A stretch of 64,000 nt of DNA from an uncultured Desulfospira sp. Its GTDB lineage: Bacteria > Desulfobacterota > Desulfobacteria > Desulfobacterales > Desulfobacteraceae. A model generated the notes under the pieces. It saw only the letters and a list, made by a program, of their open reading frames with translations. It made no database searches and was not told the origin of the DNA. A program made the position numbers and the translations under genes. Positions 18,855 to 34,209 of the stretch are shown in pieces. The number at the start of each line of letters is the position of its first letter. Position 1 is the stretch's first letter. The stretch is from positions 2,976,001 to 3,040,000 of the forward strand of contig OY760175.1 of NCBI GenBank assembly GCA_963663165.1, written 5' to 3'.

Positions 18855-19397
18855 TTATGGTGCGGTGGGGCTGTTAACCGTGCTGTTGAACAGGGGATTG
18901 ATATCTATGGAAATGGTCTGGGATGAGCTGTACACCCCCACGGTCAGGGTAATGGCCACCCTTGAAAGGCCGTCAATGGTCTGATCGGCCAGGGTGGTCC
19001 AGGCATTGCCGTCCCCATCGTAAAAATCCAGGGTAAATGCATTGACACCGTCAATGAGGGCTGCTGCGGTTTCCGACTCCCGGGTCATCGTAACATTGCT
19101 CCCGGACAGGGCAACACAAAAATCCGTGCCATCCCGGGTATAACAGATGCTGTTGGCACCGGTGCTGGACACGGCATCCATATATTTCATCTCCCGGGCC
19201 AGCCGTTCCACGGCCAGGGCCATTTTCTGGAAAGCCTCGTTATTGGCCCTGGCCAGCAAAAAGCCTTCCACACTGTTCACGAAATACATGGCAATGCCCG
19301 CACCGATAATGCCCATGATCACCAGGGTGGCGATCATTTCAATGAAGCTGAACCCCTCTTGCCCACCTAAAATTCCTTTGTTTTTTATCATCATCAA
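18855..19397 (-). CDS. Minor type IV pilin (PilW/MshO-like)
   Basis: EG|FSFIEMIATLVIMGIIG, AVERLAREM. Confidence 0.85.
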   Translation of the reverse strand: MMMIKNKGILGGQEGFSFIEMIATLVIMGIIGAGIAMYFVNSVEGFLLARANNEAFQKMALAVERLAREMKYMDAVSSTGANSICYTRDGTDFCVALSGSNVTMTRESETAAALIDGVNAFTLDFYDGDGNAWTTLADQTIDGLSRVAITLTVGVYSSSQTISIDINPLFNSTVNSPTAP

Positions 19398-19801
19398 TTT
19401 CCCAGCAAAGTGACCATCCGGCTGTTGTTTTTCTGTGCCGTAATCAGGACATACCGGGTTCCGGCTGCAGACAGTTCATCAACCTCCCGGCTGGCATTCG
19501 GCGCACTGAAGCTGGTAAAACTGCCGCTGACCATACCGGATTCAAGGCCGGTAACCACAGTGGCAACATCCCTTCTGGCATACATGCTGATATCGGCATG
19601 GGAATCTTTTTCCAGCTGGTCCCGGTAATGGGCGTTGACCTTTTCAATGGCCTGAAGCACGGCATAATTGTCCTTTAAGGTCATCAGCGGATCAGAACTG
19701 TGGGAAATGCCGTATTTGGTGCTGATCAAAAGGGAGGCGGCAAGGCCGATGAGCACAATAATGATAATGAGCTCTATCAGGGTAAATCCGTTTTCTTTCA
19801 T
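19394..19801 (-). CDS. Minor type IV pilin (PilV/MshD-like)
   Basis: NG|FTLIELIIIIVLIG. Confidence 0.85.
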   Translation of the reverse strand: MKENGFTLIELIIIIVLIGLAASLLISTKYGISHSSDPLMTLKDNYAVLQAIEKVNAHYRDQLEKDSHADISMYARRDVATVVTGLESGMVSGSFTSFSAPNASREVDELSAAGTRYVLITAQKNNSRMVTLLGN

Positions 19802-20385
19802 GGTACGAATCCTGTTTCATGGGTTACGGTAATGGTTCTCGTATTTCCGTCATACGTCGAATTATCCATTAAAACGATACGGATGTCCGAGGTGGCCCGG
19901 GTCAAGGAACCATTGTCCATAAGAGGGCCGTTAATGGTAATGCTGCCGGTTGAGGCGGTGTAGAAAGGAATACCCATATTATCAAACAGCAGGATCAGGC
20001 TGTTGCCTGCGGAAACACTGTCAATGGCCACATTCATCATGTTTGTGTTCATTCTGCCCTGGGCATCCATCATGTCCGAGGCATCGGCCCCAAAGGGTTT
20101 TGTGATGCTGGTCCAGGCCACTACACCGCTTTGCTCCCGGGCCAGCCAGTATGTTTCGCTATTGGCATCAATGCAGATGCCCCATATGCCGGTATCCGAG
20201 AACATGGATTTTGACTGGGCATACCGGATGTGATTTTTTAAGGTCGCTTCCACAGAAAACAGGTCTGAATTTTTACCGTCAAAACTGGCAATGGCCAGGG
20301 CCGATAAAAAGCCTGCGATGACCAGAATGGCAATGGCTTCAATCAGGGTGAACCCCCGATTGTTATTAAGCTGGTTTAGTTTCAT
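19798..20385 (-). CDS. Minor type IV pilin (FimT/MshC-like)
   Basis: RG|FTLIEAIAILVIAG, HIRYAQSKSM, C-terminal TITVTHETGFVP; start reassigned to ATG 20385. Confidence 0.85.
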   Translation of the reverse strand: MKLNQLNNNRGFTLIEAIAILVIAGFLSALAIASFDGKNSDLFSVEATLKNHIRYAQSKSMFSDTGIWGICIDANSETYWLAREQSGVVAWTSITKPFGADASDMMDAQGRMNTNMMNVAIDSVSAGNSLILLFDNMGIPFYTASTGSITINGPLMDNGSLTRATSDIRIVLMDNSTYDGNTRTITVTHETGFVP

Positions 20386-20470
20386 TTTTTGCCTGATCCC
20401 CTCAATCCCCCCATCCAAAATTATATATATTTTATTATATTGGTAATTTTTGTCAATGCCGGGTTATGGA

Positions 20471-21160
20471 TCACTCAATAACAATCACCCCGTCTTTTCC
20501 CTTGGTAATTTTGAAATCTGTATGTTTTTGTGTGGTTCCTTTCCCGGAGACCAGGTCTCGGACCGGGATGGCAAAATTTAAATTCTGTCCTTTGATGCAC
20601 TGAAAGGAGACAATCCCGACCACCTCGCCCTCCATATTCAGAACCGGGCCGCCGCTGGACCCCGGGGACACCGGCGCACTCATCTGGAACACATCGCCAA
20701 GGGTCTCATGCTTTCGCCATGCCGACACAATCCCGCTGGAAATGGTCTGTTCCAACCCCATGGGACTGCCGGCCACCACCACCTTCTCGCCCACCCGGGG
20801 CAGGTTCTCGGCAATTTTCAAAGGTTTTATCTGATTTTTTGGCATGGTGGTGCCCACCTGGAGGAAATCCTTGTATTTCATTCGTTTAACCGTATATGTG
20901 GTCCGGTACCGCTTCTGGTCCCAGGTTTTGATCTGGGCGGTCATCCCGGACGGAATCACATGGTCATTGGTAAGAATCTCCCCTTTTTCATTTAAGAAAA
21001 ACCCACTGCCGACTTTGCCTTTCCCGTCATAGGAATTGAGCATCACCGTTACCAGGCTGGGCCGGATCTGATCGGCAATGGCCTCAACGGTCTGGCAAAA
21101 AGCCGTTGACGCCGGAAGAATCATGGCCAGAACACACCATATTTGGAAAATAATTTTCAT
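20471..21160 (-). CDS. Exported trypsin-like serine protease (S1, no PDZ)
   Basis: Signal peptide, GSGFF, LTNDHV (His), SPGSSGGP (Ser). Confidence 0.9.
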   Translation of the reverse strand: MKIIFQIWCVLAMILPASTAFCQTVEAIADQIRPSLVTVMLNSYDGKGKVGSGFFLNEKGEILTNDHVIPSGMTAQIKTWDQKRYRTTYTVKRMKYKDFLQVGTTMPKNQIKPLKIAENLPRVGEKVVVAGSPMGLEQTISSGIVSAWRKHETLGDVFQMSAPVSPGSSGGPVLNMEGEVVGIVSFQCIKGQNLNFAIPVRDLVSGKGTTQKHTDFKITKGKDGVIVIE

Positions 21161-21369
21161 GATATGTAACTTTTCAAATTAGATTATGGATTGGATCCCC
21201 CCCTTCCGTTTACCGGACAGTATAATGCGGTCAACGCCCAATTGGCAAGCTTATTTAGCCCGTTTCCATACAGCTCCCCCAAAAAAATCGCGCCGCCCCA
21301 TGGCATTTCGCTTTGTCGCCGCAACATTTCGCCGGGGACCGGCAGCCTTTAAGGGCCCCGTGGGAAGCA

Positions 21370-21687
21370 CAGGGCAATCGCATGTAAAAATAAGTTAAAT
21401 CTTCAATAAAATGCAGGGAGACCGGAGGAAAGGAGACCGCAGACCGGAATGCGCTCCTCCAAGGGAACCCGGCATCCGGCAGCTATCGCTCCATTTTGGG
21501 TCAATGCAAGGTTGGAGCGGGCCATGCCCACGATTCGATCGCGGGCATGGCCCGCTCCAACCCTACCGCTCAAACCAGGGAACTTGACGTTTTCGGTCTC
21601 CCGTTCCCGGTCTCCGGTCTTCATTCTATACATTATCATCCATACTCACACATCAAACTATCGGCAGGTTACATGCGATTTGCCTTG
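21370..21687. mobile_element. 318-bp decayed MITE with the same ISAs1-like termini
   Basis: CAGGGCAATCGCATGTAA left, TTACATGCGATTTGCCTTG right; flanks GTGGGAAGCA / AGGGGAACCA match 7/10 (degenerate TSD). Confidence 0.75.
21510..21562. repeat. REP doublet (REPIN-like) inside the MITE
   Basis: ggttggagcgggccatgcccacga-ttcga-tcgcgggcatggcccgctccaacc: 24-bp arms, one mismatch, each arm internally palindromic. Confidence 0.8.
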
Positions 21688-21864
21688 AGGGGAACCATTC
21701 TTCCCTTGACTTTGAGTCAAATAACACTAACAATCGACTCAACATATGAGTCGAAAATGATGGTTAAACGGCTTAGATTATCTGGTATTTGGGGTCAACG
21801 TAAAATCAAGCGGCATGCCGTTTAATTTTACGGTGACCCCCATTATTGAAAAGAAGACTCATCT

Positions 21865-22263
21865 ATGATTTTAGCCAAATTAAACACAAGCCCCCGGCTT
21901 AAATTTATCCGGTTCTGTCTGGTGGGCGGATTTGGTTTTTCCGCAAGCCTGCTGCTCATGGTGATCTGGGTGGAATGCGGACATCTGTCATATTTAACCG
22001 CCACGGCACTGACCTGGCTTTGCGGCAACCTGATGACCTTTTATCTGAACAAGTCCTATACCTTTCAAAAAAGGGGCACCCGCTGGTGGTTTGAACTGCT
22101 TAAATACCTTATGGTGATGGGGGCAAGCCTCGGGTTAACCTTAGGCCTTATGGCATTTCTTTTAAATGGTCTTCATATGAATTACATTGTGGCGACCATA
22201 TGCCTGGCGGTCCTGGTCATGGGGCCAAACTACCTGCTGCATTTGTTATGGAGTTTTAAATAG
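21865..22263 (+). CDS. GtrA-family lipid-linked sugar flippase
   Basis: KFIRFCLVGG, FYLNKSYTF, NYLLHLLWSFK; four TM segments in 132 aa. Confidence 0.9.
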   Translation: MILAKLNTSPRLKFIRFCLVGGFGFSASLLLMVIWVECGHLSYLTATALTWLCGNLMTFYLNKSYTFQKRGTRWWFELLKYLMVMGASLGLTLGLMAFLLNGLHMNYIVATICLAVLVMGPNYLLHLLWSFK

Positions 22264-22266
22264 GCC

Positions 22267-23334
22267 ATGTTAAAGCTGATCAAACGAAACCTCATTGATA
22301 ACCGGCCATACCGCCTCAGGGTGATGCTCAAAGGCGGCCGGATCCTGTTAAAGGCCAGGCTGTTTAAAAAGCCAACCTTAAAATATGTGGATGTGGCCAT
22401 TGATTACCGCTGCAACATGAAATGCGAGCATTGCTTTGCCATCTACAAACTTAAAGACGACACCAGGCCCCAACTGACCATAAAAGAGTTCCGGCAGTTT
22501 GCCGGCCAGATCCAGGCCATGGGGTGTGTTCATGTCAACCTTCAGGGCGGAGAACCGTTGATCATCCCGAACCTTGAAGATTACATCAAAGCCTTTAACC
22601 CGGCCCGATGCCATGTATCGGTCACCACCAACGGGTTTTTCTTTAACGAAGAATGGGCCGTTAAATTAAAAACCGCCGGGGCGGCCCAGCTGGTCTTCAG
22701 CATGGACAGCATGGACGCCGATGCCCATGACCGGTTCAGGCGATGCAGGGGGGCCCATCAACGGGTCCTTGACGCCATAAAACTTGCCAGAAAGCATCAA
22801 TTCTACACCACGGTGAACGTTACGGTCAGTTCAAAGTCCCTGAGAAGCCCGGGCCAGCATGACCTGTTTGACTGGCTGGAGAAACACCATATCCCTTACA
22901 ACCCCATTCTGGCCTGTTCCGTGGGGGGGTATGAAACAGACCGGCTTCTGGTTACCGAACAGGATGCGGCATTGGTGGAAGGCCTTTGCCAAAACGGGAT
23001 CGGCCAGCGGGATATCCACGCCTCCCTGATTAAAACCGGATGCGCCGCCACTTTAGAGCAGGTCTACATCACCCCTTACGGGGATGTGATCCCCTGCCCG
23101 TTTATCCAGATATCCCTGGGCAATATCCGGGAAACCCCCATCCAAAAGATCTGGGCAACAGCGGTTCAAGAGGGGCTTCACGGCCATTACCACGGCAAAT
23201 GCTGGGTGGCCCAGGAAACCGGATTTGTAAAAGCCCTGACCCGGGGCACGGCCCCATACCATACGCTGCCCATTCACCATACGGTTCCCCATGGCCATAA
23301 TATTTTAAGACCATTCTGGGGCCAGGAATCATGA
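22267..23334 (+). CDS. Radical SAM protein with SPASM/Twitch domain
   Basis: CNMKCEHC, GGEP, TTNG, CAA...YITPYGDVIPCPF...LGNI. Confidence 0.92.
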   Translation: MLKLIKRNLIDNRPYRLRVMLKGGRILLKARLFKKPTLKYVDVAIDYRCNMKCEHCFAIYKLKDDTRPQLTIKEFRQFAGQIQAMGCVHVNLQGGEPLIIPNLEDYIKAFNPARCHVSVTTNGFFFNEEWAVKLKTAGAAQLVFSMDSMDADAHDRFRRCRGAHQRVLDAIKLARKHQFYTTVNVTVSSKSLRSPGQHDLFDWLEKHHIPYNPILACSVGGYETDRLLVTEQDAALVEGLCQNGIGQRDIHASLIKTGCAATLEQVYITPYGDVIPCPFIQISLGNIRETPIQKIWATAVQEGLHGHYHGKCWVAQETGFVKALTRGTAPYHTLPIHHTVPHGHNILRPFWGQES

Positions 23335-24032
23335 ACCAGGGGGTTCAAAAAAAATATTATGACCAACGTTCAGCAGCCTATGATCGGGATTTTTTTACCC
23401 CCACCCCCACGGCGGCCCGGAAGCGGTTTAACAAACTGATTCCACCTGACCTTAACCAGACAGACTTTCAAACCATATTGGAGGTTGGGGCCGGCACCGG
23501 GGGATACACAAGGCTTTTAAAAAAACTGCCCCACCATCAAATGGTGGTTTCCGAACTGTCATTTAACATGCTCACGATTTTAAAAGGAAAGGAACAGCCC
23601 CCAAACCGATCTGCTTATCTGGCGGCCGATGCCGCGGGCCTTCCCTTTTTTGATGAAACCTTTGATAATGTCTTTGCCTTTGCCTGTTTTCATCATATAT
23701 CGGATACCGCCGGGGCCTTTAAAGAAATTTACCGGATCTTAAAGCCCAAAGGCCGTTTTTTTTTGATGGAACCCAACCCCGCATTCCCCCTGAACAGCCT
23801 GATGGGCATCTTAAAAAAACATGAGCGGGGAATGGTGTCATCATGGCCGGCCAAATGGAAAGCCCAGGCCTCGTCAGCCGGATTCCACTGCACCCGGGCG
23901 GCGTTTGGGTCCTTTTTTCCGGGAAAGCCGTCATGGATGGAACCGGTTTACCAGGCGGTGGAACCGGTAATGGAAAAAATGCCCGTTATCAGAAACATGG
24001 CTATTTTTTGTTTTTTTACCTTTGAAAAATAA
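23331..24032 (+). CDS. Class I SAM-dependent methyltransferase
   Basis: LEVGAGTG, LPFFDETFD, RILKPKG. Confidence 0.9.
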   Translation: MNQGVQKKYYDQRSAAYDRDFFTPTPTAARKRFNKLIPPDLNQTDFQTILEVGAGTGGYTRLLKKLPHHQMVVSELSFNMLTILKGKEQPPNRSAYLAADAAGLPFFDETFDNVFAFACFHHISDTAGAFKEIYRILKPKGRFFLMEPNPAFPLNSLMGILKKHERGMVSSWPAKWKAQASSAGFHCTRAAFGSFFPGKPSWMEPVYQAVEPVMEKMPVIRNMAIFCFFTFEK

Positions 24033-24049
24033 ACAAACGGACACCCATA

Positions 24050-25498
24050 ATGAAGGTCTTCTTCCTAAACCCGCCGTTCAAACCGTTTTTTTCCAGATCG
24101 GAAAGAAGCCCCCAGGTGGCCAAAAGCCGGACCCTTTACTTTCCGGTATGGCTGGCCCAAAGCGCGGCTTATATTGAAAAAAACGGCCACACCATTGATT
24201 TTGCCGATGCCGTGGCCCAGGACCTGTCGCCGGGTCAATGCCTTGAACGGATTCAACGGTTTGGCCCGGGCCTTGTCATCATGGAGACATCCACGGCCAG
24301 CATTATGTCTGACCTGGGCGTTGTCAAAAAACTTAAAGAACGCCTTCCCGCCATAAAAACCGCCCTGTGCGGGACCCATGTGTCTGCCCTGCCCGAGTGG
24401 ACCCTGAAGGCCTGTCCTGAGTTGGACCATGTGATCATGGGCGAATATGAGACCGCCACATTAAGCCTGATACAGGCCATGGAAAAGGGGCAGGCTGAGT
24501 CGGCACAGGGCACGGCCTGCCACACCGGCGGCCGGATAAGGGTGAACCCGGGAGCGGGGGTTATTCAGAACCTGGATGACATCCCTTTTGCCAGTGCCAT
24601 ATACAAACGGTTCCTCAACCATAAAGATTATTTTTTTGCGGCTGCCGATTATCCGGGAATCATGCTGATGACCGGCCGGGGGTGTCCCAACCAATGCGTC
24701 TGGTGCCTGTTCAACCAGACCCTTCACGGGCGAAGGTACCGGTTCCGCAGCCCGGAAAAGATCATTGCGGAATTTGAATATATCATCCAAAATTTCCCCG
24801 ATGTAAAAGAGATCTGGATTGATGACGACACCTTCACGGCCAATAGAAAACACCTGCATAAGGTCTGTGAGCTGATCATTGAGCGAAAGCTTAAATTCAA
24901 GACCGGACCCTTTAAGTGGTACTGCAATGCCAGGCCCCCGGTCAGCCTGGAGTCTTTAAAGCTGATGAAAAAAGCGGGCTGCCGGCTGATCGTGGTAGGG
25001 TTTGAAAGCGGCTCTGAAGCCATCTTAACCCGGATGAAAAAAGGGTATACCCTGGATAAGGGCATTGCACTGATGCAACACACCAAAAAGGCCGGCATCC
25101 TGGTCCATGGGTGTTTTATGGTGGGCAATGACGGGGAAACCAAAGAGACCATGGAACAAACCCTTGCCCATGCCAAAAAGCTGCTCCCGGACAGTGCCCA
25201 GTTTTATTTTGTCCACCCTTATCCCGGCACCCGCTACTACGCCTGGGCCGCCCAAAAAGGCGTTCTGGCTTCAGATAATTTTAACGACTGGCTTAAGCCC
25301 AACGGGCAGCACCGGTGTGTGATAAACCTTCCCGGCCTTGGGGCGGAACAGCTTGAGGATTTCTGCAACAGGGCTTATAAACGGTACCACTTTTGCGCGC
25401 CCTATCTTTTCATGAAATTAAAGCAGTTGTTCACCCATCCGGCCGAAGGGATCCGCAGCCTCAGGTCTGCCCTTAACTTTATCGCCGGTGCCCTGTAA
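24050..25498 (+). CDS. Cobalamin-binding radical SAM protein (HpnJ-like)
   Basis: FLNPP...YFPVWLAQ B12-domain start, GRGCPNQCVWC, DDDTF, GFESG, PYPGT. Confidence 0.9.
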   Translation: MKVFFLNPPFKPFFSRSERSPQVAKSRTLYFPVWLAQSAAYIEKNGHTIDFADAVAQDLSPGQCLERIQRFGPGLVIMETSTASIMSDLGVVKKLKERLPAIKTALCGTHVSALPEWTLKACPELDHVIMGEYETATLSLIQAMEKGQAESAQGTACHTGGRIRVNPGAGVIQNLDDIPFASAIYKRFLNHKDYFFAAADYPGIMLMTGRGCPNQCVWCLFNQTLHGRRYRFRSPEKIIAEFEYIIQNFPDVKEIWIDDDTFTANRKHLHKVCELIIERKLKFKTGPFKWYCNARPPVSLESLKLMKKAGCRLIVVGFESGSEAILTRMKKGYTLDKGIALMQHTKKAGILVHGCFMVGNDGETKETMEQTLAHAKKLLPDSAQFYFVHPYPGTRYYAWAAQKGVLASDNFNDWLKPNGQHRCVINLPGLGAEQLEDFCNRAYKRYHFCAPYLFMKLKQLFTHPAEGIRSLRSALNFIAGAL

Positions 25499-25499
25499 C

Positions 25500-26534
25500 A
25501 TGGCCGAACCAATTGACATCACGGTGGTGATTGTCTGCCTGAACGAGGCGGCCAACATTGAAAGATGCCTGAACTCGGTTTTGAACCAGGATTTAGATGC
25601 CCCCTATGGGGTCAGTGTTATTGACGGCGGCTCCAGTGACGGCACCATTGAAATCATCAAAAATTTTCAAAAAAAACACCCTGGTTTAAGGCTGCTCAAC
25701 AACCCTGAACAGGTCATTTCACCGGCCAGGAATATGGGCTGGCAAACGGCCCAGACACCGTTTATCGCCTATATTGATGCCGACTGCAAGGCCCCTTCGA
25801 ACTGGTTGAGGACCCTTCTGGCCGGGTTTAAACATCTTGAGGCCAAAGGGGTTAACCCGGCCTGTGTGGGCGGCGGCAACTATCCGCCGGGCCAGGCCGG
25901 CGACTTTTATAAAGCCATTGATATTTTCACCTCCTCGCCGTTCGGGAACAGGGGAACGCTTCAGACCCATATGCCGGAGGATATCACCCAAATTAACCAT
26001 GCCCCGACCTTAAACACCCTGTATCGGCGAAAGGCAGTGGAACAGGCCGGCGGCTTTGATGAAAAAAGGTTCCCCCTGGTCGGAGAGGATGAAGATCTGA
26101 ATACCAGGCTTTCGGACATGGGCTTAGGGATATACTTTATTCCCGGTGCCCCGGTGGCACACTACCAGAAAAACGACATCCGGTCCTGGGCGAAAAACAT
26201 GGTGACCTATGGTTTTGGAAGGGTTAAGCTCATGAAGCGGCACAAACGGCTTTTCAGCCTTAAAAATTTTATGCCGCTGCTGCTGCCCGTTGTGATGGGG
26301 CTGCCGCTTCTTTCTGTTCTATCCTTTAACACCGGTATTTTTTTGGGGTCTTTATGCCCGCTTGCCTTTTATCTGCTTTTTTTTCTTTTCCACAGTTTTA
26401 CCCTGACCCGTAAAGCAAAACGACCGAACCTCTTTAAAACCGTATTCGCCCTTTTCCCGGTCACCCATTTTTTTTATGCCGCAGGCATGGCAAAAGCCTA
26501 TTGGGAATCGGTAAAAGAAGTCTTCTCCACATAG
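25500..26534 (+). CDS. GT2 glycosyltransferase with C-terminal TM helices
   Basis: CLNEA, DGGSSDGT, ARN, IDAD, GGFDE, GEDEDL. Confidence 0.92.
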   Translation: MAEPIDITVVIVCLNEAANIERCLNSVLNQDLDAPYGVSVIDGGSSDGTIEIIKNFQKKHPGLRLLNNPEQVISPARNMGWQTAQTPFIAYIDADCKAPSNWLRTLLAGFKHLEAKGVNPACVGGGNYPPGQAGDFYKAIDIFTSSPFGNRGTLQTHMPEDITQINHAPTLNTLYRRKAVEQAGGFDEKRFPLVGEDEDLNTRLSDMGLGIYFIPGAPVAHYQKNDIRSWAKNMVTYGFGRVKLMKRHKRLFSLKNFMPLLLPVVMGLPLLSVLSFNTGIFLGSLCPLAFYLLFFLFHSFTLTRKAKRPNLFKTVFALFPVTHFFYAAGMAKAYWESVKEVFST

Positions 26535-27688
26535 GTTTCAACACAAAACAGGAACAAGGATGTGCCGATAATCTGAAATCCCACGATCAGGCAGGTAACC
26601 GACGGGACCACCCACCGCATGGTCATGGCATTGTCAAGCCCCCCGAAATGTTTTGAGCCCCAGTAGCCAAAGGCAATGGCGAACAACACCGCCCCAAGGC
26701 AGATAAACAGGGCGCCAATGGTCAGCCATGACTCCATTTTATAATATTTCAATATCTTATGGGAGATGCTCTTTTTTCTGAGCAAGGGGATATTGCGATG
26801 GATCAGGACCTTTGAATACAGGCCGATCTGGATGAACTGAAGCCCGATGATAAAGACCACGGCCATGTACAGGAGCCTTTGGGGGCCGGCATCAAACCCG
26901 AGCACCGAATAGGGGGTGATCACCATGGAGGCGCTGGAAAAAAAACCGATAACGGCCATGATAATCCCGGGATAAATAAACAAAAACTGGGGGCTGTACA
27001 CAAACAAAAACCGCAAATGCCGCCAGCCGTCCCGGAAGGGATTTAAGTGGGGCGGCCGGTCCCGGCCGTCTTTGCGAAGGGTGACCGGGACCTCCATTCG
27101 CCGGATATCCAGCAATGCGGCTTTAACGATAATTTCCGAGGCAAATTCCATTCCCGAAGAATTTAAGTCCATGGCGTCATAGGCTTTTTTCGTAAATGCC
27201 CTGAGGCCGCAATGGGCGTCGGAAAGCCCGGACTTGAAAAACAGATTTAACACGCCGGTCAGCAGCGGGTTCCCGATATACCGGTTTTTCCAGGGCATGG
27301 CCCCTTTTTCAATCTGTCCTTTCAAGCGGGTGCCCATGACCAGGCCGAACCCGTCTTCATGAAGGTGCTTTATCATGTCAAAGGCCTGGCGGAAATCGTA
27401 TGACCCGTCAGAATCCCCCATGACGATGTATGTCCCGAGGCTTTTTTTGATGCCGTACCGGATGGCGTTGCCGTACCCTTTGTCCGGGCAGTTGACCACC
27501 CGGCCCCCCAAGCGTTCCCCAAGTTCCTGGCTGCCGTCAATGGACCCGTTATCCGAAATAATGATCTCGCCTTGAAGCCCCAGTTGTTCACGGCATTTTT
27601 CAAGGCATTCCCCGGCCCATCCCATGCAGGTGCCCAGGGTCTTCACTTCATTGAGACACGGCATTACAATGGAAATATCAATCGGCAT
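26498..27688 (-). CDS. GT2 polyprenol-phosphate glycosyltransferase (DPM1/GtrB-like) with C-terminal TMs
   Basis: MPCLNE, DNGSIDGS, GYGNA, GDSDGSYD, SDAHCGLRAF, GMEFASE, RDGWRHL; start reassigned to ATG 27688. Confidence 0.92.
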   Translation of the reverse strand: MPIDISIVMPCLNEVKTLGTCMGWAGECLEKCREQLGLQGEIIISDNGSIDGSQELGERLGGRVVNCPDKGYGNAIRYGIKKSLGTYIVMGDSDGSYDFRQAFDMIKHLHEDGFGLVMGTRLKGQIEKGAMPWKNRYIGNPLLTGVLNLFFKSGLSDAHCGLRAFTKKAYDAMDLNSSGMEFASEIIVKAALLDIRRMEVPVTLRKDGRDRPPHLNPFRDGWRHLRFLFVYSPQFLFIYPGIIMAVIGFFSSASMVITPYSVLGFDAGPQRLLYMAVVFIIGLQFIQIGLYSKVLIHRNIPLLRKKSISHKILKYYKMESWLTIGALFICLGAVLFAIAFGYWGSKHFGGLDNAMTMRWVVPSVTCLIVGFQIIGTSLFLFCVETYVEKTSFTDSQ

Positions 27689-27719
27689 TTTTTTGATTCC
27701 AATTAAGGGGGTCCCCCTG

Positions 27720-29246
27720 TTATCTGGGAATCCTTCCACTCCAGATCTGAGGTTTTATTTCAAACCACTCCAGGCCGGCAATATCGGGTTTAGCCTTGCC
27801 TTCCAGGACAAACCGGTCCTTTGGGGTCATTTTAAAAACAATAAGCGAAAGCTTTTCTTTGGCCCCCAGAGAAAACATGATCTGATGGTAAATATCCAGG
27901 TTTTCTTTGGGCATGACCGTTGCATCCGGCCCCAGAAAATACCGCCAGGGCGCATTGGGGTTGGCGTAAAAGGTTTTATAAAACAGGTCCATGGAAATAT
28001 TGTAAAAAATCCCGTCAGGCTCCGGTAGCCACTGGCGGGTCTTCTCGTCGGCCAGATCCGGTGCCTTGTTATACATGGACTTGCTCCAGCGGCCGTCAAA
28101 ATCCCCGGATAGCACCAGGCAGAAAACCAACCCCGTACAAAGGGCAATCAAAGGCCGTTTAAAGGACAGCAGGGGGATGCAAAGGTCCTGGTTAAAAATT
28201 TCTTCAACCTCTTCATACAGCCAGACAAAGTAGGCGGGCACCCCGAAATCCGGCCAGAACCGGTTGACCTTCATGGACAAAACCCAGGACAGGCAGACAA
28301 GGATAAACATGGGGTTCAACATCCGGGACCGGATCTCTTTGCCCGAGGCTTTCCGCCATAAAATCAGCAAAATCATGGGCAAAAAATCCAGGATGGACTG
28401 AAGCCTTGGCACCAGCTCGCCCACCCGCATCCAGGACAGCACCGGCCGCTGGGCCGACCCGAAAACCTCTTTGGTGGTGGCAACAAAAAACTCGTAAGGC
28501 TCCAGGGACAAGGCTGCGGCCGTGACAACGGCCAAGGCCCAGACAATGGCCAGTCTATAACATTTTTTGGCCTCCCCTGCCATCAGATAGCAGCCGATGG
28601 GCAGCAGAAACAGGAACCATACCGCCCTTAAGGTCATGGACAGGGTCAGGACCAGGTATAAAAAGACCAGATACCTTAAATCAAATTTATCCCGGTAATG
28701 CTGGGCCGAAAGGCCGATCAGGGCCACGGCCGCCACCTGTGAAAGAAAGGGCCTTCCCAGCATATACCGCATGGGATTGACAATCACGCACAGTCCGATG
28801 ATCAGACAAAGGGCCCATACTTCAGGCCGCTTGACCACAAACGCCGGCAGGGCAAAGTTCAGGGCCAGCATAAACACGATGGAGAAATACAGCAGACTCT
28901 CCTTTGGCATGCCATGGTCAAACAGAAAAAACAGGATGGTTTTCCAACCGAAATGGATATCAAACAGCGGCCATGACCCCATTACCAGGATCTGGTTCCA
29001 GTCCTTCTGGCAGACGGCCTGGCCCACATGCCTTAACCCGTCATCGGTGGGCATGTAATCCAGGCTGATGATGACCACCGCGCTCCACAAAAAGAACCAG
29101 AGAAATACCAGAAGACAGGCGGCCGGGATACGCTGCTTGATAAGTTCCAATTTAGATCCCAAGGCAGCTGATGAAAAATAACGAAGACCGCTGGGCCGGC
29201 CTTCATTATTTTCCTCAGGCAAATGGTGGTATTGGGCAGGGCCCAA
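27720..29246 (-). CDS. Multi-pass membrane protein, GT-C-fold-like glycosyl/oligosaccharyltransferase candidate
   Basis: About 10-11 TMs, acidic PTDDGLRH loop after first TM, soluble C-terminal tail; start codon uncertain (TTG). Confidence 0.55.
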   Translation of the reverse strand: MGPAQYHHLPEENNEGRPSGLRYFSSAALGSKLELIKQRIPAACLLVFLWFFLWSAVVIISLDYMPTDDGLRHVGQAVCQKDWNQILVMGSWPLFDIHFGWKTILFFLFDHGMPKESLLYFSIVFMLALNFALPAFVVKRPEVWALCLIIGLCVIVNPMRYMLGRPFLSQVAAVALIGLSAQHYRDKFDLRYLVFLYLVLTLSMTLRAVWFLFLLPIGCYLMAGEAKKCYRLAIVWALAVVTAAALSLEPYEFFVATTKEVFGSAQRPVLSWMRVGELVPRLQSILDFLPMILLILWRKASGKEIRSRMLNPMFILVCLSWVLSMKVNRFWPDFGVPAYFVWLYEEVEEIFNQDLCIPLLSFKRPLIALCTGLVFCLVLSGDFDGRWSKSMYNKAPDLADEKTRQWLPEPDGIFYNISMDLFYKTFYANPNAPWRYFLGPDATVMPKENLDIYHQIMFSLGAKEKLSLIVFKMTPKDRFVLEGKAKPDIAGLEWFEIKPQIWSGRIPR

Positions 29247-29249
29247 GGG

Positions 29250-29630
29250 TTAGTATAGCTCGACCCCGCTTTTGGTATTGGTCATGGTACCGTCGTCGCT
29301 GGTTACCGTAATATCGACACTTCCGGCGTTTCTGACGTAAGTGGCCATGTAATCGCCAAGGTCATTGTCCACAGAAGACATGGCTGCGGTCAATGCCGCA
29401 TTGGTATCACCGTTCTGGACCATCAGCTGCCGGGAATATTCCATGGTGATGTTGCTGATAGCGGCGGCCATGGCACCCTGGGCTGCCTTTTCTTTGGCCT
29501 GTTCAACCATATCCAGGTATTTGGGAACGGCAACGGCCGCTAGAATACCCAGAATGATCAAAACGGCGATGATTTCAATCAAGGTAAAGCCCTGTTCGTT
29601 TTTAAGCACTTTTCTCATGGATTTTTTCAT
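29250..29630 (-). CDS. Major type IV pilin (MshA-like)
   Basis: EQG|FTLIEIIAVLIILGILAAVAVPKYLDM; GGAGA RBS before ATG 29630; own sigma-54 promoter. Confidence 0.9.
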   Translation of the reverse strand: MKKSMRKVLKNEQGFTLIEIIAVLIILGILAAVAVPKYLDMVEQAKEKAAQGAMAAAISNITMEYSRQLMVQNGDTNAALTAAMSSVDNDLGDYMATYVRNAGSVDITVTSDDGTMTNTKSGVELY

Positions 29631-29718
29631 TTTTCTCTCCTTTAGTTTGGGTATAAACATTAAACCACATTTATTTAGCCTCGGCCATGGGTCAGATTGC
29701 CTTTCATTGAACAATCGT

Positions 29719-29735
29719 AGCACAAGCCGTGCCAA
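29719..29735 (-). promoter_or_regulatory. Sigma-54 (-24/-12) promoter of the major pilin
   Basis: Minus strand TTGGCACGGCTTGTGCT = GG-N10-GC, about 90 bp upstream of the pilin ATG. Confidence 0.85.
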
Positions 29736-29842
29736 AATCAAAGAAAACGAAAACTTTGCAGCGGCATCGTCTTCTCTTTATTAACAAGCTCTTATTTTGG
29801 CAGGCCATTTGGATTGAAACCCGCCAGGATAAATGATAATTC

Positions 29843-29875
29843 CTCCATTATTTGAAGCCGCTTCATAAAGTGGAG
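29843..29875. promoter_or_regulatory. Imperfect inverted repeat: candidate enhancer (UAS) or terminator
   Basis: ctcca-ttatt-tgaagc-c-gcttca-taaag-tggag, 110-140 bp upstream of the -24 box. Confidence 0.45.
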
Positions 29876-29878
29876 ATT

Positions 29879-31237
29879 TCATTTGAACTCCCCGGCATTG
29901 ATCCCATATTTTTTAATCCGGTTCCATAGGCTCCTGGGTTTGATCCCGAGCATATCGGCTGCCCTGGCCTGAACCCCGTTGTTCTGTTTAAGGGCCTGGA
30001 CAATGAACGCCACCTCAATCCGGCCCAGTTCGTCATTTAAGCTGAAACCTTCTTCATCAGGCAATACAACCGGATCCTCCTGGGCTTTGGCCGGTGTTGC
30101 CAAACCGGCGGCCTGCTGAAAATCAAAATGCTCTTTTTGCAGCACCTCCGTGTCACAGCAGATGACGGCCTGTTCAATTTTATTTTCAAGTTCCCGGATA
30201 TTCCCCTTCCAGTCATGGGATTTTAAAAACCCCATGGTGTCATCGGAAATTTTTTTGCCTTTTTTCTGGGCAAAGTGTCCGGCCAATAGTTCGATATCGT
30301 TTTCCCGCCGGGCCAGGGGCGGCAGAATGATATTGAACACGTTGAGCCGGTAAAACAAATCTTCCCTGAACCGCCCCTGGGCCACCAGGGCTTCAAGGTT
30401 TTTATTGGTGGCGGCGATAACCCTGACGTCGACCTTAAAGGGTTTCTGTCCGCCGACACGAAAAAATTCGCCGTTCTGCAACACACGGAGGAGCTTCACC
30501 TGAACCTCCTGGGGCATTTCGCCGACTTCATCCAGAAAGATGCTCCCCTTGTCCGAGCGTTCAAAACAGCCTTTGTGAAGGGCCACCGCTCCGGTAAAGG
30601 CGCCTTTTTCATGGCCGAACAATTCGCTTTCAAGGAGGCCCGGGGATATGGCGCCGCAGTTTACCTTGATCAGGGGCCCGTCCTTTCGGGGGCTTTTTTC
30701 ATGAACCGCATCGGCGATCAGTTCTTTTCCGGTTCCGCTCTGGCCCAAGATCAACACCCCGGCAGGGGACGGTGCAACCTTGAGGACCTGCTCCAGGACA
30801 TAGGCCATTTCCCGGCTTTTAAATAAAATATGGGGAAACTGGTCCTGGAGCTTTTTAATATCGCTTCCAACGGCGATTTTTCCGAACACTTTCCTGTATT
30901 CGTCAAGCTCATCCAAAAAAAACCAGTTGCGATGCCGGTTTTTGTTCATCCGGGTTTCCCTGCCCGTTTCCGTTCCGGTATTTTCCGACAGGGAAATGTT
31001 CTTGTTTAACCGCTCCAGCAGCTCTTCCGTTGGTTTTAAGACAAACCTCAAGACCGCGTACCCCGTGGCAAAGGACCCGCTGAAAATTAAAAACCCGGCC
31101 AGGCTGTGGATCTGGCCGGTATAGGGTGAATTCCCCAATACCGCTGAAATCTGAAAAGAAACAATATACGCAAACACAGAGCCCATCCCCCAGACAAAGG
31201 GAACGAGAAAGTATATGCTGATATTGATTCCGCTCAT
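29879..31237 (-). CDS. Sigma-54-dependent activator (bEBP) with N-terminal transmembrane input
   Basis: GQSGTGKE, ESELFGHEKGAFTGA, FLDEVGE, FREDLFYRL, WKGNIREL, Fis HTH; two hydrophobic N-terminal segments and no receiver domain. Confidence 0.9.
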   Translation of the reverse strand: MSGINISIYFLVPFVWGMGSVFAYIVSFQISAVLGNSPYTGQIHSLAGFLIFSGSFATGYAVLRFVLKPTEELLERLNKNISLSENTGTETGRETRMNKNRHRNWFFLDELDEYRKVFGKIAVGSDIKKLQDQFPHILFKSREMAYVLEQVLKVAPSPAGVLILGQSGTGKELIADAVHEKSPRKDGPLIKVNCGAISPGLLESELFGHEKGAFTGAVALHKGCFERSDKGSIFLDEVGEMPQEVQVKLLRVLQNGEFFRVGGQKPFKVDVRVIAATNKNLEALVAQGRFREDLFYRLNVFNIILPPLARRENDIELLAGHFAQKKGKKISDDTMGFLKSHDWKGNIRELENKIEQAVICCDTEVLQKEHFDFQQAAGLATPAKAQEDPVVLPDEEGFSLNDELGRIEVAFIVQALKQNNGVQARAADMLGIKPRSLWNRIKKYGINAGEFK

Positions 31238-31269
31238 ATCGTTGCAAACCGGATGAAAGATTAAAATGG

Positions 31270-32499
31270 CTATTGCACCATCTGGGTCAAATCCCACATG
31301 GGCAGGAAAATCGCCATGGCAAAAAAACCGACCACACTGGCCAGGCCGACCACCAGGATCGGCCCGATGGCTTCGGACATGGCTTTGGTGCTGTATTCCA
31401 CCTCTGTATCATAATGGGATGATATCTCTGCCAGCATATCATCCAGGTTACCGGATTCCTCTCCAATGGCCACCATATTGATCACCATGGGGGGAAAATA
31501 TTTGGACGACCGCAAGGGCTGGGAAATCCCCCGGCCTTCAGTGAGCATTTCCTTTATCCGGTTAAATTCCAGGGTAATGGCGTCATTGCTGATGGTCTTG
31601 GACAAGACGTCCATGGAATCCAGAACCGTTACCCCGCTCATCTGAAGAATGGAAAAGATAGAAGCAAACCGGGACATGGCCGCTTTGAGCATTACCGGCC
31701 CGACCAGGGGCATTCTCAAAAGGGTCCGGTCTTTGACGACCCGTCCGTTGTGGGTTTTAAAAAAATAATAGTGGCTTAAAAACAGCACCGCCGCCACACT
31801 GATGATCCCCACATGCCAGTAGTTGTGGATCACATGATACAACATCAGGCACATCTTGGTGGGAAGGGGAAGGGCAATCCCCACCTTCTCAAAAATAGAG
31901 ATAAACTTGGGGATAACAAAATTTAAAAGCACCATAAAGGCCACGCCCAGAAAGCCCAGCACCATCATGGGATACCGCATGGCCGATTTGATATCCGCCT
32001 TGATTTTGGTTTCATGCTCAATGATGTAGATCAGCCGTTCAAGCACCTCGGGCAGGGCGCCGGAGGCTTCACCGGCATTGATCATGTTGCAGTAAAGTTC
32101 GCTGAACACGTTGTCGTGTTTGGAAAATGCCCGGTAAAGGTTGGCCCCTTCCCGGACATCTTCCCTGATCTGGGAAATCACCTTTTGCAACCGCTTATTC
32201 TCGGTCTGAAGTTCCATGGTGCTCATCACATCCATCAGCGGCACCCCGGCCTGGACCAGGGTTTTGAACTGCTTGGTAAACAGGATCATATCCCGGGGCT
32301 TGACCGGGGTGAGCCGGTCCGAAAATTTTTCCATAAACCCGCCGCCGCCCAGGCCGCCATGGCCCTTTTCTTTGACGGTTTCCGGGATATACCCCCTGGC
32401 AGACAGCATATCAAAGGCAAGGTCCCGGGACGGGGCCTCTATGTCTCCTTTGACCTGGGAGCCGTTTTCATTAATGGCTGTATAAGAAAAAAGCGTCAT
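31270..32499 (-). CDS. Type IV pilus/T2SS inner-membrane platform protein (PilC/MshG/GspF)
   Basis: AGEASGAL, AMRYP, LPLPT, GEESGNLD, AIFLPMW. Confidence 0.95.
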   Translation of the reverse strand: MTLFSYTAINENGSQVKGDIEAPSRDLAFDMLSARGYIPETVKEKGHGGLGGGGFMEKFSDRLTPVKPRDMILFTKQFKTLVQAGVPLMDVMSTMELQTENKRLQKVISQIREDVREGANLYRAFSKHDNVFSELYCNMINAGEASGALPEVLERLIYIIEHETKIKADIKSAMRYPMMVLGFLGVAFMVLLNFVIPKFISIFEKVGIALPLPTKMCLMLYHVIHNYWHVGIISVAAVLFLSHYYFFKTHNGRVVKDRTLLRMPLVGPVMLKAAMSRFASIFSILQMSGVTVLDSMDVLSKTISNDAITLEFNRIKEMLTEGRGISQPLRSSKYFPPMVINMVAIGEESGNLDDMLAEISSHYDTEVEYSTKAMSEAIGPILVVGLASVVGFFAMAIFLPMWDLTQMVQ

Positions 32500-32502
32500 G
32501 GC

Positions 32503-34209
32503 TTACATCATTACGGCGGAAGCCGCCTCCTCCGGGCTGGTTATGCCATTGGCCACCTTAATGGCGGCATCCTGTTTCAGGGTCTTAAGATGCCCTGAAG
32601 CTTCACAGATCCGGGTGATCTCCTGGGCCGGTTTTCCGGACAGGATCATCTGCTGGACATCCTGGTTGATGTGCAGGACCTCATAGAGCCCGGTCCGGCC
32701 GGAATATCCCGTATCCTTGCACTGAAGACACCCTTTTCCCCGGACAAAATCAACCCCCTGGGCCTGGTCAAGCTCCCAGAATTTACGGACCGGTTCGGGA
32801 GGGGAGTAGGACTCCTTGCAATGGGGGCAGACCCGCCGGATCAGCCGCTGGGCAATGGCCACCAGCATGACCGAGGATACCAGGAAAGGCTCAATGCCCA
32901 TGTCCACAAACCGGGTGACGGCCCCGGCCGCATCATTGGTATGCACGGTGCTGAGCACCATATGGCCGGTCAGGGCGGCCTGGACCGCAACCCCGGCGGT
33001 TTCGCCGTCCCGGATCTCACCGATCATGACCACGTCCGGGTCCTGGCGCAGGATGGCCCGAAGTCCCGAGGCAAACGTCATCCCGGCCTTTTTGTTGAGC
33101 TGGCCCTGGCGGACATGCTCCATCCGGTATTCCACGGGATCTTCAAGAGTGATGATGTTCACGTCCGGGGTATTGATGATCTTGAGCATGGAAAACAGCG
33201 AGGTGCTTTTCCCGGACCCGGTGGGGCCCGTGGCCAGGATCATGCCATAGGGCATTTTGATCATCTTTTCGATGAGCGCGATATCTTTGGGATCTACCCC
33301 AAGCTTGTCCAGAGAATAAATCCCGGCGCTGGTGTCCAGAAGGCGAAGCACCACGTTTTCCCCGTATACCGTGGGGATGGTGGACACACGGATATTGATC
33401 TCTTTGTCCTGGACAAAGATAGTGAACCGCCCGTCCTGGGGAATCCTTGACACTGAAATGTCCAGGGAGGCCAGAATTTTAAGACGGGAGACAATAGACA
33501 TGAACATGCCCTTGGGCGGGGCCGGTATATTGTGCAGTTTTCCGTCCACCCTGAACCGGATTTCCACGTAGGTCTTTTCCGGGCTTAAGTGGACATCCGA
33601 GGCGCCTTCTTTGACGGCCTGGGTTAGAATAGAGTTGACCAGACGGATGACCGGGGCTTCTTCGGCCATGTCCATGAGTGAGGAAATGGCATTCTGGCGC
33701 TGTTCCTCCATCTCGTCCTGAACATCCATCCCCTCCATTTCCTGGATGTTTTCCATCACCCCGTCGGAACCCGAATAGGTACCGTAAACCGAGGAAATCA
33801 GGATCCCGAGTTCCTGCTCCGTGCAGATCACTGGCTCGACTTCCGTGTCTGTATAGACCTCAATATGATCCAGGGCATTGATGTCCAGAGGGTCAGTCAT
33901 GGCCAGGAACAATACCGTGCCTTCGGTATGAATGGGAACGGCCTGGTATTTTCTGGCCGTATCCACATCAATAATATCGGCAAGGGCCGTGGTAACCGCA
34001 AATTCACTGGGGTCGTACCGTTTGATTTTAACCTGGTCGGAAATCAGCTCTACAATGGCTTTCTCACTGACGATGCCTTCTGAAATCAAGTGCTGCCCCA
34101 GGCGTTTGCCGCTTCCCCTCATGGCCTTCAACGCCTGTTCGAGCTGCGCCTTTTCCAGTATTCCGGCTTCAACGAGCATTTCACCCAGGCGCTTGCGTTT
34201 ATTTATCAT
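32503..34209 (-). CDS. Pilus extension ATPase (PilB/MshE) with MshEN domain
   Basis: RLGEMLVEAG / RLGQHLISEG, ASDVH, PQDGR, GPTGSGKST, EDPVEY, LRQDPD, CxxC...CxxC. Confidence 0.95.
   Translation of the reverse strand: MINKRKRLGEMLVEAGILEKAQLEQALKAMRGSGKRLGQHLISEGIVSEKAIVELISDQVKIKRYDPSEFAVTTALADIIDVDTARKYQAVPIHTEGTVLFLAMTDPLDINALDHIEVYTDTEVEPVICTEQELGILISSVYGTYSGSDGVMENIQEMEGMDVQDEMEEQRQNAISSLMDMAEEAPVIRLVNSILTQAVKEGASDVHLSPEKTYVEIRFRVDGKLHNIPAPPKGMFMSIVSRLKILASLDISVSRIPQDGRFTIFVQDKEINIRVSTIPTVYGENVVLRLLDTSAGIYSLDKLGVDPKDIALIEKMIKMPYGMILATGPTGSGKSTSLFSMLKIINTPDVNIITLEDPVEYRMEHVRQGQLNKKAGMTFASGLRAILRQDPDVVMIGEIRDGETAGVAVQAALTGHMVLSTVHTNDAAGAVTRFVDMGIEPFLVSSVMLVAIAQRLIRRVCPHCKESYSPPEPVRKFWELDQAQGVDFVRGKGCLQCKDTGYSGRTGLYEVLHINQDVQQMILSGKPAQEITRICEASGHLKTLKQDAAIKVANGITSPEEAASAVMM

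Follow-up and report, generated by a model that had tools for sequence, protein, structure and literature searches.

A candidate TfpW-like pilin glycosylation locus with an unannotated GT-C family and predicted radical SAM sugar tailoring in an uncultured Desulfospira species

Introduction

What do glycosyltransferases and radical enzymes contribute when their genes are placed between the major and minor pilin genes of a pilus locus? The question is raised by a 64,000-nt stretch of the genome of an uncultured Desulfospira species (contig OY760175.1, positions 2,976,001 to 3,040,000), which as a whole is referred to here as the window. In this stretch, minus-strand genes for a major prepilin, a multi-pass membrane protein, and a family 2 glycosyltransferase (GT2) are met by a converging plus-strand operon that encodes two radical S-adenosylmethionine (SAM) enzymes. 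Domain scans with Pfam and NCBIfam took in 18 genes of the window, between positions 15696 and 37629.

An original prediction, made from the sequence alone, held that the encoded proteins build a glycan on a lipid carrier, remodel it by radical chemistry, and transfer it to the pilin. The analysis presented here points to a three-component pilin glycosylation system resembling that of TfpW in Pseudomonas aeruginosa, with a new family of membrane glycosyltransferases of the GT-C fold and predicted radical SAM tailoring of the sugar. We assign this reading a probability of about 0.5. It builds on the gene content of the locus, the GT-C fold, the pairing of this enzyme with a polyprenyl-phosphate-type GT2, the recurrence of its family beside pilin genes, and purifying selection.

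Gene content of the cassette

The major pilin gene and the cassette that adjoins it comprise the following genes:

29250..29630, minus strand: major prepilin of 126 aa (N_methyl PF07963, 32.4 bits)
27720..29150 (frame open to 29246), minus strand: membrane glycosyltransferase of the GT-C fold, as predicted from a structure model; no Pfam or NCBIfam match
26498..27739, minus strand: GT2 resembling GtrB and dolichol-phosphate-mannose synthase (DPMS) (AglJ TIGR04182, 126 bits, cut-off 325; PpgS, 73 bits)
21865..22263, plus strand: small membrane protein of the GtrA family (PF04138, 83.7 bits)
22267..23334, plus strand: radical SAM/SPASM enzyme (PF04055, 74.9 bits; PF13186, 35 bits)
23331..24032, plus strand: class I SAM-dependent methyltransferase (Methyltransf_11, 76.6 bits)
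24050..25498, plus strand: B12-binding radical SAM enzyme, HpnJ-like (TIGR03471, 353.5 bits)
25488..26534, plus strand: membrane-anchored GT2 (PF00535, 90.7 bits; MftF-like, 121.9 bits, cut-off 280)

The open reading frame (ORF) map and the domain scans bear out the gene list proposed for both strands. One detail is corrected: eight genes, not seven, separate the major from the minor pilins, the additional one encoding a trypsin-like serine protease at 20471-21160. From GtrA through GT2, the plus-strand genes are spaced by 3, -4, 17, and -11 nt, and the last of them overlaps the minus-strand GT2 gene tail to tail by 37 nt, so the tightly coupled operon with its convergent overlap is likewise upheld. 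Coupling is also close on the minus strand, where the stop of the GT-C gene overlaps the start of the DPMS/GtrB-like GT2 by 20 nt.

A GT-C fold behind the pilin gene

The multi-pass membrane protein is 476-508 aa long, with 476 aa resulting from the start used by the database copy. Because a profile search of PDB sequences with its family yielded chance-level matches only (E-value, E, 0.36 or worse), the fold was detected from a structure model. An AlphaFold2 model built on a 17-sequence alignment is confident (predicted local distance difference test score, pLDDT, 87.9; predicted template modelling score, pTM, 0.85). All of the top 33 Foldseek rows obtained with it are GT-C enzymes or complexes containing one, including AftA, STT3, AglB, PglB, DPY19, ArnT, ALG3/9/12, AftD, Pmt4, and EmbC. 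VIA-align, an aligner independent of Foldseek, gives ArnT a Z score of 14.3 (root-mean-square deviation 5.7, 422 aligned), with further scores of 12.7 for STT3B, 12.7 for Pmt1/2, 12.4 for DPY19, and 11.9 for PglB; after 20 related rows, Z falls to 4.4 at rank 21.

The model places the first transmembrane helix (TM1) at residues 8-29, followed by two aspartates at residues 36-37, and a small alpha/beta domain at residues 370-476. Within the DD-x-x-RH motif that follows TM1, D37, R40, and H41 are at least 90% conserved across the 17 sequences, and D64 is invariant. As modelled, the loop bearing this motif would face the periplasm. GT-C enzymes, TfpW included, carry a DDX motif at the matching position (10.1101/2020.04.19.049825). 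Two defining features of GT-C enzymes, a multi-pass membrane core with the GT-C fold and an acidic motif in the first extracytoplasmic loop, are found in the model. Judged by its predicted structure, the protein is a GT-C-fold enzyme of an unannotated family, in agreement with its earlier description as a GT-C-like membrane protein. We predict that it acts as a pilin glycosyltransferase with a polyprenyl-phosphate-linked donor.

A word-indexed search of 5.8 billion clusters retrieved 17 relatives of this enzyme, and a full profile search of 1.84 billion representatives retrieved 621 family members at E up to 1e-3, 325 of them at E up to 1e-30. The Desulfospira genome holds one copy. The closest clusters in the ESM Atlas are unnamed and mainly from Verrucomicrobiota; the nearest ones with a Pfam family carry PMT_2, which serves as a lead only.

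Lipid-carrier partners and pilin acceptor

AglJ, PpgS, and dolichyl-phosphate hexose transferase are the families that best match the minus-strand GT2, and the nearest solved relative in a sequence search is dolichol-phosphate-mannose synthase (5mlz, E 1.6e-6). Hydropathy indicates about four C-terminal membrane segments. From these sequence features, the enzyme is predicted to be a polyprenyl-phosphate sugar synthase. The GtrA gene opens the plus-strand operon; it is one of two in the genome and the only one within the locus, and its product is proposed to be a flippase or partner for the lipid-linked sugar. The locus thus holds the set that defines a three-component Gtr system, namely GtrA, a GT2 of the GtrB/DPMS type, and a GT-C enzyme, split over two converging operons, and this part of the original prediction stands. 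A second GT2 closes the plus-strand operon; its hydropathy profile shows two to three hydrophobic C-terminal segments, and its gene overlaps the HpnJ-like gene by 11 nt.

The prepilin has a 14-aa leader up to the site G|FTLIE, which leaves a mature pilin of 112 aa. The start codon of the gene is the ATG at 29630, preceded by a ribosome-binding-site-like aaggagag; a longer ORF reaching 29741 represents upstream read-through. Mature pilin lacks Cys, and Ser plus Thr account for 13 of the 56 residues in its C-terminal half versus 4 of 56 in the N-terminal half. The Ser/Thr-rich, Cys-free C-terminal half described at the outset is hence confirmed by composition. The pilin is the predicted glycan acceptor.

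In an alignment of pilins adjacent to GT-C genes, all are short prepilins of 108-156 aa that fall into two types, one with a Cys pair near the C-terminus and one that is Cys-free and includes the window pilin. A Tyr (Y94 of the window prepilin) is invariant in all 15 aligned sequences.

Recurrence of the GT-C family beside pilin genes

Neighbourhoods of the family were compared in 49 loci. A pattern scan with one genome per species gave 31, from which a near-identical locus of the same genus (L023) and a 1.8-kb fragment (L053) were excluded, leaving 29. The other 20 come from 81 genomes around one Omnitrophota match; a profile search detected the family in 19 of these genomes, at 23 places in all, of which three were left out (the query locus, one contig of 2.1 kb, and an incomplete match where a contig ends).

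A prepilin-motif gene directly adjoins the GT-C gene in 10 of the 49 loci, all outside the genus and mostly in Omnitrophota (L025, L038, L042, L132, L136, L138, L139, L141, L142, and L143). Pfam verified the N_methyl domain in nine of these pilins, and the tenth, in L139, was recognized by motif. A pilin or an MshE, PilC, or secretin gene is present in 14/49, with L024 counted on a weak secretin-like BLAST match only. The commonest order is MshE-PilC-pilin-GT-C, and a pilin gene followed by the GT-C gene occurs in the window and in L025, L042, L141, L142, and L143. As a control, the prepilin motif was applied to 589 ORFs from control loci. Its four matches all belong to L016, the syntenic locus of the same genus, and the 50 remaining loci have none.

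The pairing with a lipid-carrier enzyme also recurs. A DPMS/AglJ-like GT2 directly adjoins GT-C homologues in L044, L047, and L039, and the L047 copy is 41% identical to the window GT2; GT2s of this type, labelled by BLAST, lie near the GT-C gene in L142 and L144.

A quick tree of 49 GT-C sequences, from which a length and stop filter excluded L135 and L147, places the window enzyme and its same-genus copy on a long branch beside two Victivallales sequences, one of them from a pilus locus. A Verrucomicrobiota clade has no link to pilins, and an Omnitrophota-rich clade is mixed. Pilin adjacency is spread across several deep branches and requires six label changes, a value as low as which was reached in none of 500 shuffles, with the tree being quick and related loci not independent. 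Since the GT-C loci are related to one another, locus counts overstate independence. The family recurs beside pilin genes in distant phyla.

Several of these pilin/GT-C pairs are accompanied by sugar cassettes of their own. In L042, a single packed strand encodes a pilin, the GT-C enzyme, a radical SAM enzyme, a radical SAM/SPASM enzyme, a family 9 glycosyltransferase, the alpha and beta subunits of a thiamine-pyrophosphate-dependent E1 enzyme, a GT2, another radical SAM/SPASM enzyme, and a pilin-like protein. The cassette is sandwiched between pilin genes as in the window. Its radical SAM enzymes are not orthologous to those of the window; the sole BLAST match to the window radical SAM/SPASM protein is 26% over 153 residues. 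In L138, the GT-C and pilin genes have a radical SAM gene and a GT2 in their vicinity. In L143, pilin and GT-C are followed by an unknown protein, an NAD epimerase, a methyltransferase, transketolase N and C parts, and two GT2s, and L141 shows the mirror order of this cassette. In L038 (3817-7518), the pilin beside the GT-C gene is followed by two PMT_2 membrane proteins with tetratricopeptide repeats (TPR), which recalls the GT-C-plus-TPR layout of TfpW. Taken together, these loci indicate a recurring design in which a pilin/GT-C core is joined by a variable sugar cassette, often with two GT2s.

Conservation within the genus and among relatives

In G001, which represents a second species of the genus, the entire block is syntenic, down to the 37-nt overlap. 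All cassette genes are intact there, and ratios of nonsynonymous to synonymous substitution rates (dN/dS) of 0.11-0.25 at dS values of 0.2-0.3 reveal purifying selection on them. The HpnJ-like protein is matched in 8 of 61 genomes of relatives at E up to 1e-60, the window genome counted, and only in G001 is the match syntenic. In a further member of the genus (G002), the best PilC reaches only 35% identity and the polyprenyl-phosphate-type GT2 has no match, so that this pilus locus seems to be missing from G002.

The radical SAM enzymes of the converging operon

The radical SAM/SPASM enzyme has a truncated SPASM domain of the type with one auxiliary cluster, matching positions 1-46 of the 67 in PF13186, with a CNMKCEHC motif and C259-X12-G-X4-C277. 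Its nearest solved relative is the cytosylglucuronate decarboxylase BlsE (7vob, E 8e-10). The family is rare, with 29 matches, and no protein above 35% identity was found in 400 sampled genomes of the phylum. The B12-binding enzyme matches the HpnJ model TIGR03471 over its full length (positions 1-478), with BchE as the next family at 157 bits, and carries a CPNQCVWC motif. Its 353.5 bits remain below the HpnJ equivalog cut-off of 577.6. The nearest solved relative is AprD4 (6fd2, E 8e-13). Both nearest solved relatives, BlsE and AprD4, act on sugars, and HpnJ has been proposed to remodel lipid-bound glucosamine (PMC13459092). The radical SAM/SPASM protein is a predicted sugar-tailoring enzyme, and the HpnJ-like protein is predicted to remodel, by radical chemistry, a sugar bound to a lipid or a glycan.

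A hopanoid role of the HpnJ-like gene was considered and rejected on account of the score below the HpnJ cut-off and of squalene-hopene cyclase (TIGR01507), which was not found in the window's genome (96.7% complete). Homologues of the HpnJ-like protein are very common: of 8000 scored, 3810 reach E 1e-3 or better, and the best non-self match has 61% identity.

Two other arrangements of related genes were observed. In L017, L019, L020, and L075, an HpnJ-like gene lies directly beside a molybdopterin oxidoreductase gene in a conserved module of the exopolysaccharide (EPS) type, and in the three window-related genomes that carry this module, an initiating sugar transferase and an AMP-binding enzyme are encoded upstream. 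Locus L018 (G003) is a 14-kb single-strand cluster with three radical SAM/SPASM-type enzymes, two B12 radical SAM enzymes, two short-chain dehydrogenases/reductases, two DUF218 proteins, an LPG_synthase_TM protein, two GT2s, and a DUF2304 protein, and without a pilin. It holds the closest in-family homologues of three plus-strand genes of the window, at 45%, 33%, and 28% identity.

Proposed pathway and alternative explanations

[quoted passage not shown] The second membrane GT2, encoded by the converging operon, would likely extend it, and the BlsE-like radical SAM enzyme, the methyltransferase, and the HpnJ-like B12 radical SAM enzyme would likely tailor it. GtrA would then help to move the product across the membrane. 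In the periplasm, the GT-C enzyme would transfer the glycan to Ser or Thr in the Cys-free C-terminal half of the pilin before MshE-driven assembly. From the features described above we infer which donor and acceptor are used, in what order the steps occur, what each radical SAM enzyme catalyses, and that the two strands are linked. That link is the weakest part of the scheme; its support comes from the location of the plus-strand operon amid pilin genes, from the shared GtrA, from conservation in two related species, and from the analogous Omnitrophota cassettes.

A number of observations weigh against this scheme. HpnJ-like homologues of 25-51% identity were examined in 44 metagenome loci; in 18 of these a GT2 gene directly adjoins the homologue, and in none was a pilin motif or this GT-C family found nearby. 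The annotated subset of these loci consists of Wzx/Wzy-type polysaccharide loci or generic three-component clusters, such as one with PMT_2, GT2, DUF2304, and two HpnJ-like genes, and in family relatives the HpnJ-like homologues belong to EPS-like loci that also encode an initiating sugar transferase, an AMP-binding enzyme, and a molybdopterin oxidoreductase. In five cases, a close homologue of the radical SAM/SPASM protein and one of the HpnJ-like protein lie on contigs of equal size (17501, 3790, 17886, 14690, and 15925), which suggests that this pair travels together elsewhere; none of the five sizes matches the contigs of the 17 GT-C matches. The tailoring operon occupies the opposite strand with its own upstream region, as expected for separate transcription, and neither a sigma-54 site nor a shared regulator was found upstream of GtrA. 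Since HpnJ-like/GT2 homologues mostly reside in pilin-free polysaccharide loci, the module appears to be a general glycan-tailoring unit that here sits in a pilus locus. Chemistry adds a constraint, as ring contraction of the kind proposed for HpnJ would leave no anomeric centre, and a contracted sugar could not link a GT-C donor without a second sugar. As for the GT-C family, 35 of its 49 loci show no pilus gene. In Verrucomicrobiota, a run of Ser/Thr kinase, CN-hydrolase, and GT-C genes (L024, L027, L028, L032, L036, L037, L043, and L046) is free of pilus genes, which hints at a different acceptor in that phylum. The family is therefore not restricted to pilins. Several Verrucomicrobiota loci continue after the GT-C gene with an RmlD-like reductase, a GluRS-like gene, and ATP synthase subunit a.

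Homologous cassettes unlinked to pilins had been named at the outset as what would speak against the idea of a pilin-directed cassette, and this is partly what was found: homologues of the HpnJ-like/GT2 pair usually lie in polysaccharide loci that have no pilin. Recurrence beside pilins accordingly holds for the GT-C family (direct neighbour in 10/49) and fails for the HpnJ-like/GT2 module (0/44). The predicted remodelled, lipid-linked pilin glycan is supported by the GT-C fold, the GT2 and GtrA partners, the adjacency of GT-C genes to pilins, and cassettes elsewhere, and is opposed by the lack of pilin specificity of the radical SAM module.

These findings leave some room for a division of labour in which the minus-strand GT2 and the GT-C enzyme put a plain sugar on the pilin, and the plus-strand operon is a separate module for an EPS, lipopolysaccharide (LPS), or capsule-like glycan that landed as part of the same accessory block. 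The polysaccharide loci with their adjoining GT2s and missing pilins, the apparent joint movement of the two radical SAM genes without GT-C, the opposite strand with its own upstream region, and the four-segment membrane domain that the GT2 beside the GT-C gene possesses of its own would all be consistent with it. However, the operon is placed between major and minor pilin genes, like the L042 cassette, and contains the only GtrA of the locus. Its 37-nt convergent overlap has been retained in two species, the pilin/GT-C pairs of L141 and L143 likewise come with two GT2s, and among the 18 scanned genes none was identified as Wzx, Wzy, Wzz, an initiating transferase, or an export gene. We regard such a separate module as unlikely, though it keeps appreciable weight. 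The GT-C enzyme could instead act on another periplasmic or outer-surface acceptor, for example a glycan of the LPS or EPS, or some other protein of the envelope, with pilin adjacency as mere hitch-hiking. The many family loci devoid of pilus genes, the Verrucomicrobiota clade beside RmlD-like and housekeeping genes, and the modification of O-antigens by classical three-component systems (PMC11127046) agree with such an acceptor. It is rendered rather improbable by the direct adjacency of pilins in 10/49 loci versus none in the control loci, by the spread of this adjacency over several deep branches of the quick tree (six changes, with the caveat on related loci given above), and by a gene order like that of pilin-modifying TfpW, whose gene directly follows pilA.

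By analogy with HpnI/HpnJ in the formation of hopanoid cyclitol ether and with calditol synthase (Cds), the plus-strand operon might also produce a membrane glycolipid with a sugar head group edited by radical chemistry and take no part in protein glycosylation. HpnJ is by far the nearest named family (353.5 versus 157 bits), the substrates of HpnJ and Cds are lipid-bound sugars (PMC13459092), and the membrane GT2 is translationally coupled to the HpnJ-like gene. Against this stand the hopene cyclase not found in the 96.7%-complete genome, the score under the HpnJ cut-off, the occurrence of homologues in polysaccharide loci rather than lipid loci, and the position within a pilus locus, so a glycolipid product would seem very improbable.

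Returning to the pilin glycosylation system with predicted radical SAM tailoring, the constraint on ring contraction carries a consequence. Should the HpnJ-like enzyme act in the manner of HpnJ, the residue that it edits would have to be the second sugar, which would give a role to the second GT2. A bolder version of the pathway, decidedly improbable in our estimate, has the HpnJ-like enzyme contracting or rearranging a sugar of a polyprenyl-phosphate disaccharide. The pilin would then carry a carbocyclic (cyclitol-type) or radical-edited pseudo-sugar, made without oxygen by a pilin-dedicated GT-C family that is shared across anaerobe phyla with interchangeable cassettes.

Comparison with known systems

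Group IV pilins of P. aeruginosa are served by TfpW, a GT-C enzyme, together with a GtrA-like protein and lipid-linked D-arabinofuranose formed via DprE1/DprE2 (10.1101/2020.04.19.049825). The GT-C gene lies immediately 3' of the pilin gene in both systems (here, the pilin gene ends at 29250, and the frame of the GT-C gene is open from 29246), a DDX-type acidic motif occurs in the first periplasmic loop, and a GtrA-family protein is present. A sugar built and remodelled on polyprenyl phosphate and Ser/Thr acceptors, both predicted for the window, would be shared as well. Differences are also evident. TfpW has 646 aa with a large C-terminal TPR region, whereas the window GT-C enzyme has 476 aa, a small alpha/beta periplasmic domain, and no TPR match in Pfam. 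Genes for DprE1/E2 or a phosphoribosyltransferase are missing here, with no DprE-like domain among the 18 scanned genes, and tailoring would involve two radical SAM enzymes and a methyltransferase. The comparison concerns described features, not sequences. TfpW is the closest system in mode of action.

Known three-component systems (GtrA/GtrB/Gtr*, including Citrobacter pentofuranose) have O-antigens and other glycans as acceptors and epimerases as editing enzymes (PMC11127046). They share with the window a GT2-type polyprenyl-phosphate sugar synthase, a GtrA-type protein, a GT-C enzyme, and optional editing of the sugar on the lipid. The window departs from them in its pilin as the predicted acceptor, its radical SAM editing enzymes, and its second membrane GT2. 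The HpnI/HpnK/HpnJ system for bacteriohopanetetrol cyclitol ether and Cds offer a different parallel: a full-length HpnJ-homologous B12 radical SAM enzyme coupled to a membrane GT2, and a lipid-bound sugar as the likely substrate (PMC13459092). The score below the equivalog cut-off, the hopene cyclase that was not found, the lack of an HpnK-like deacetylase gene in the locus, and the pilus context set the window apart.

The oligosaccharyltransferases PglL, PilO, and TfpO, which act on pilins of Neisseria, Pseudomonas group I, and Acinetobacter, have a Wzy_C domain and use undecaprenyl-diphosphate-linked glycans. They resemble the present case in that a gene for a pilin O-glycosylation enzyme lies near the pilin gene. 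No Wzy_C (O-antigen ligase-like) domain was found in the 18 scanned proteins of the locus. In the literature searched, radical SAM chemistry is described neither for pilin glycosylation nor for polyprenyl-phosphate/GT-C systems, and no product is given for the widespread HpnJ-like B12 radical SAM enzymes paired with GT2s. An Omnitrophota preprint mentions pilins and glycosyltransferases without linking them.

The surrounding pilus locus

The remaining features of the locus all lie on the minus strand:

35917-37629: PilQ-type secretin (PilQ subfamily model passed)
34243-35910: ExeA/MshM-like AAA protein (domain scans)
32503-34209: MshE-type ATPase with a cyclic di-GMP-binding MshEN domain (PF05157, NF053729)
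31270-32499: PilC/GspF platform protein (domain scans)
29879-31297: sigma-54 activator (domain scans)
29719..29734: sigma-54-type promoter-like site, TGGCACGGCTTGTGCT, with 1 mismatch to TGGCAC-N5-TTGCW
20471-21160: trypsin-like serine protease (PF13365, Trypsin_2, 89.2 bits)
19798-20418, 19394-19801, and 18855-19397: three minor pilins (N_methyl matches)
15696-18827: 1043-aa protein without a family match (domain scans)

The locus had been described as MSHA-like, and this is borne out for one component and not for another. The ATPase belongs to the MSHA type, with 55.9 bits for MshEN (PF05157) and 57.9 bits for NF053729 over a cut-off of 38. The secretin scores only 122 bits against the MshL model TIGR02519 (cut-off 250.2) and fits PilQ instead, with 337.9 bits over the subfamily cut-off of 284.35. 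Seven T2SSE-family matches occur in the genome.

The sigma-54-type site lies about 88 nt upstream of the pilin ATG and adjacent to the sigma-54 activator gene. Across the window, the pattern is not enriched (26 matches found versus 36 expected), so the site gains weight only from its position beside the activator gene. An Rfam scan over 20000-31000 gave no match at E up to 0.1, and hence no riboswitch was found upstream of the plus-strand operon. The 700-bp gap between the protease and GtrA genes contains a perfect 20-bp inverted repeat with a 13-nt loop (21510-21562), which falls within a 109-aa ORF without a family match and has no Rfam match. The gene for the protease, an HtrA-type core without a PDZ domain, comes first in the minor-pilin operon and has been conserved in the same-genus locus.

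Divergence from the second species is uneven along the pilus genes. Positions 31127-33126, spanning PilC and most of the MshE gene, show 98-99% DNA identity versus 86-95% in the flanks, and PilC is 100% identical at the protein level, with a dS of 0.033 versus 0.2-0.3 for its neighbours. Such identity suggests that the two species have recently exchanged this segment.

Significance and outlook

Pilin glycans influence phage adsorption, surface attachment, and immune or predator recognition, and the known enzymology of these glycans stems from a few aerobic or facultative pathogens. The GT-C family described here, with 621 representative clusters and without a Pfam or NCBIfam model, stands beside major pilins in Desulfobacterota, Omnitrophota, and other uncultured lineages. 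A constant pilin/GT-C core with differing sugar cassettes constitutes a natural series for comparative glycochemistry. In the window, the product of an HpnJ-like/GT2 pair would sit on a small, abundant, and shearable protein amenable to mass spectrometry. If the bolder version of the pathway were true, a carbocyclic or radical-edited pilin sugar would be a protein modification without described precedent.

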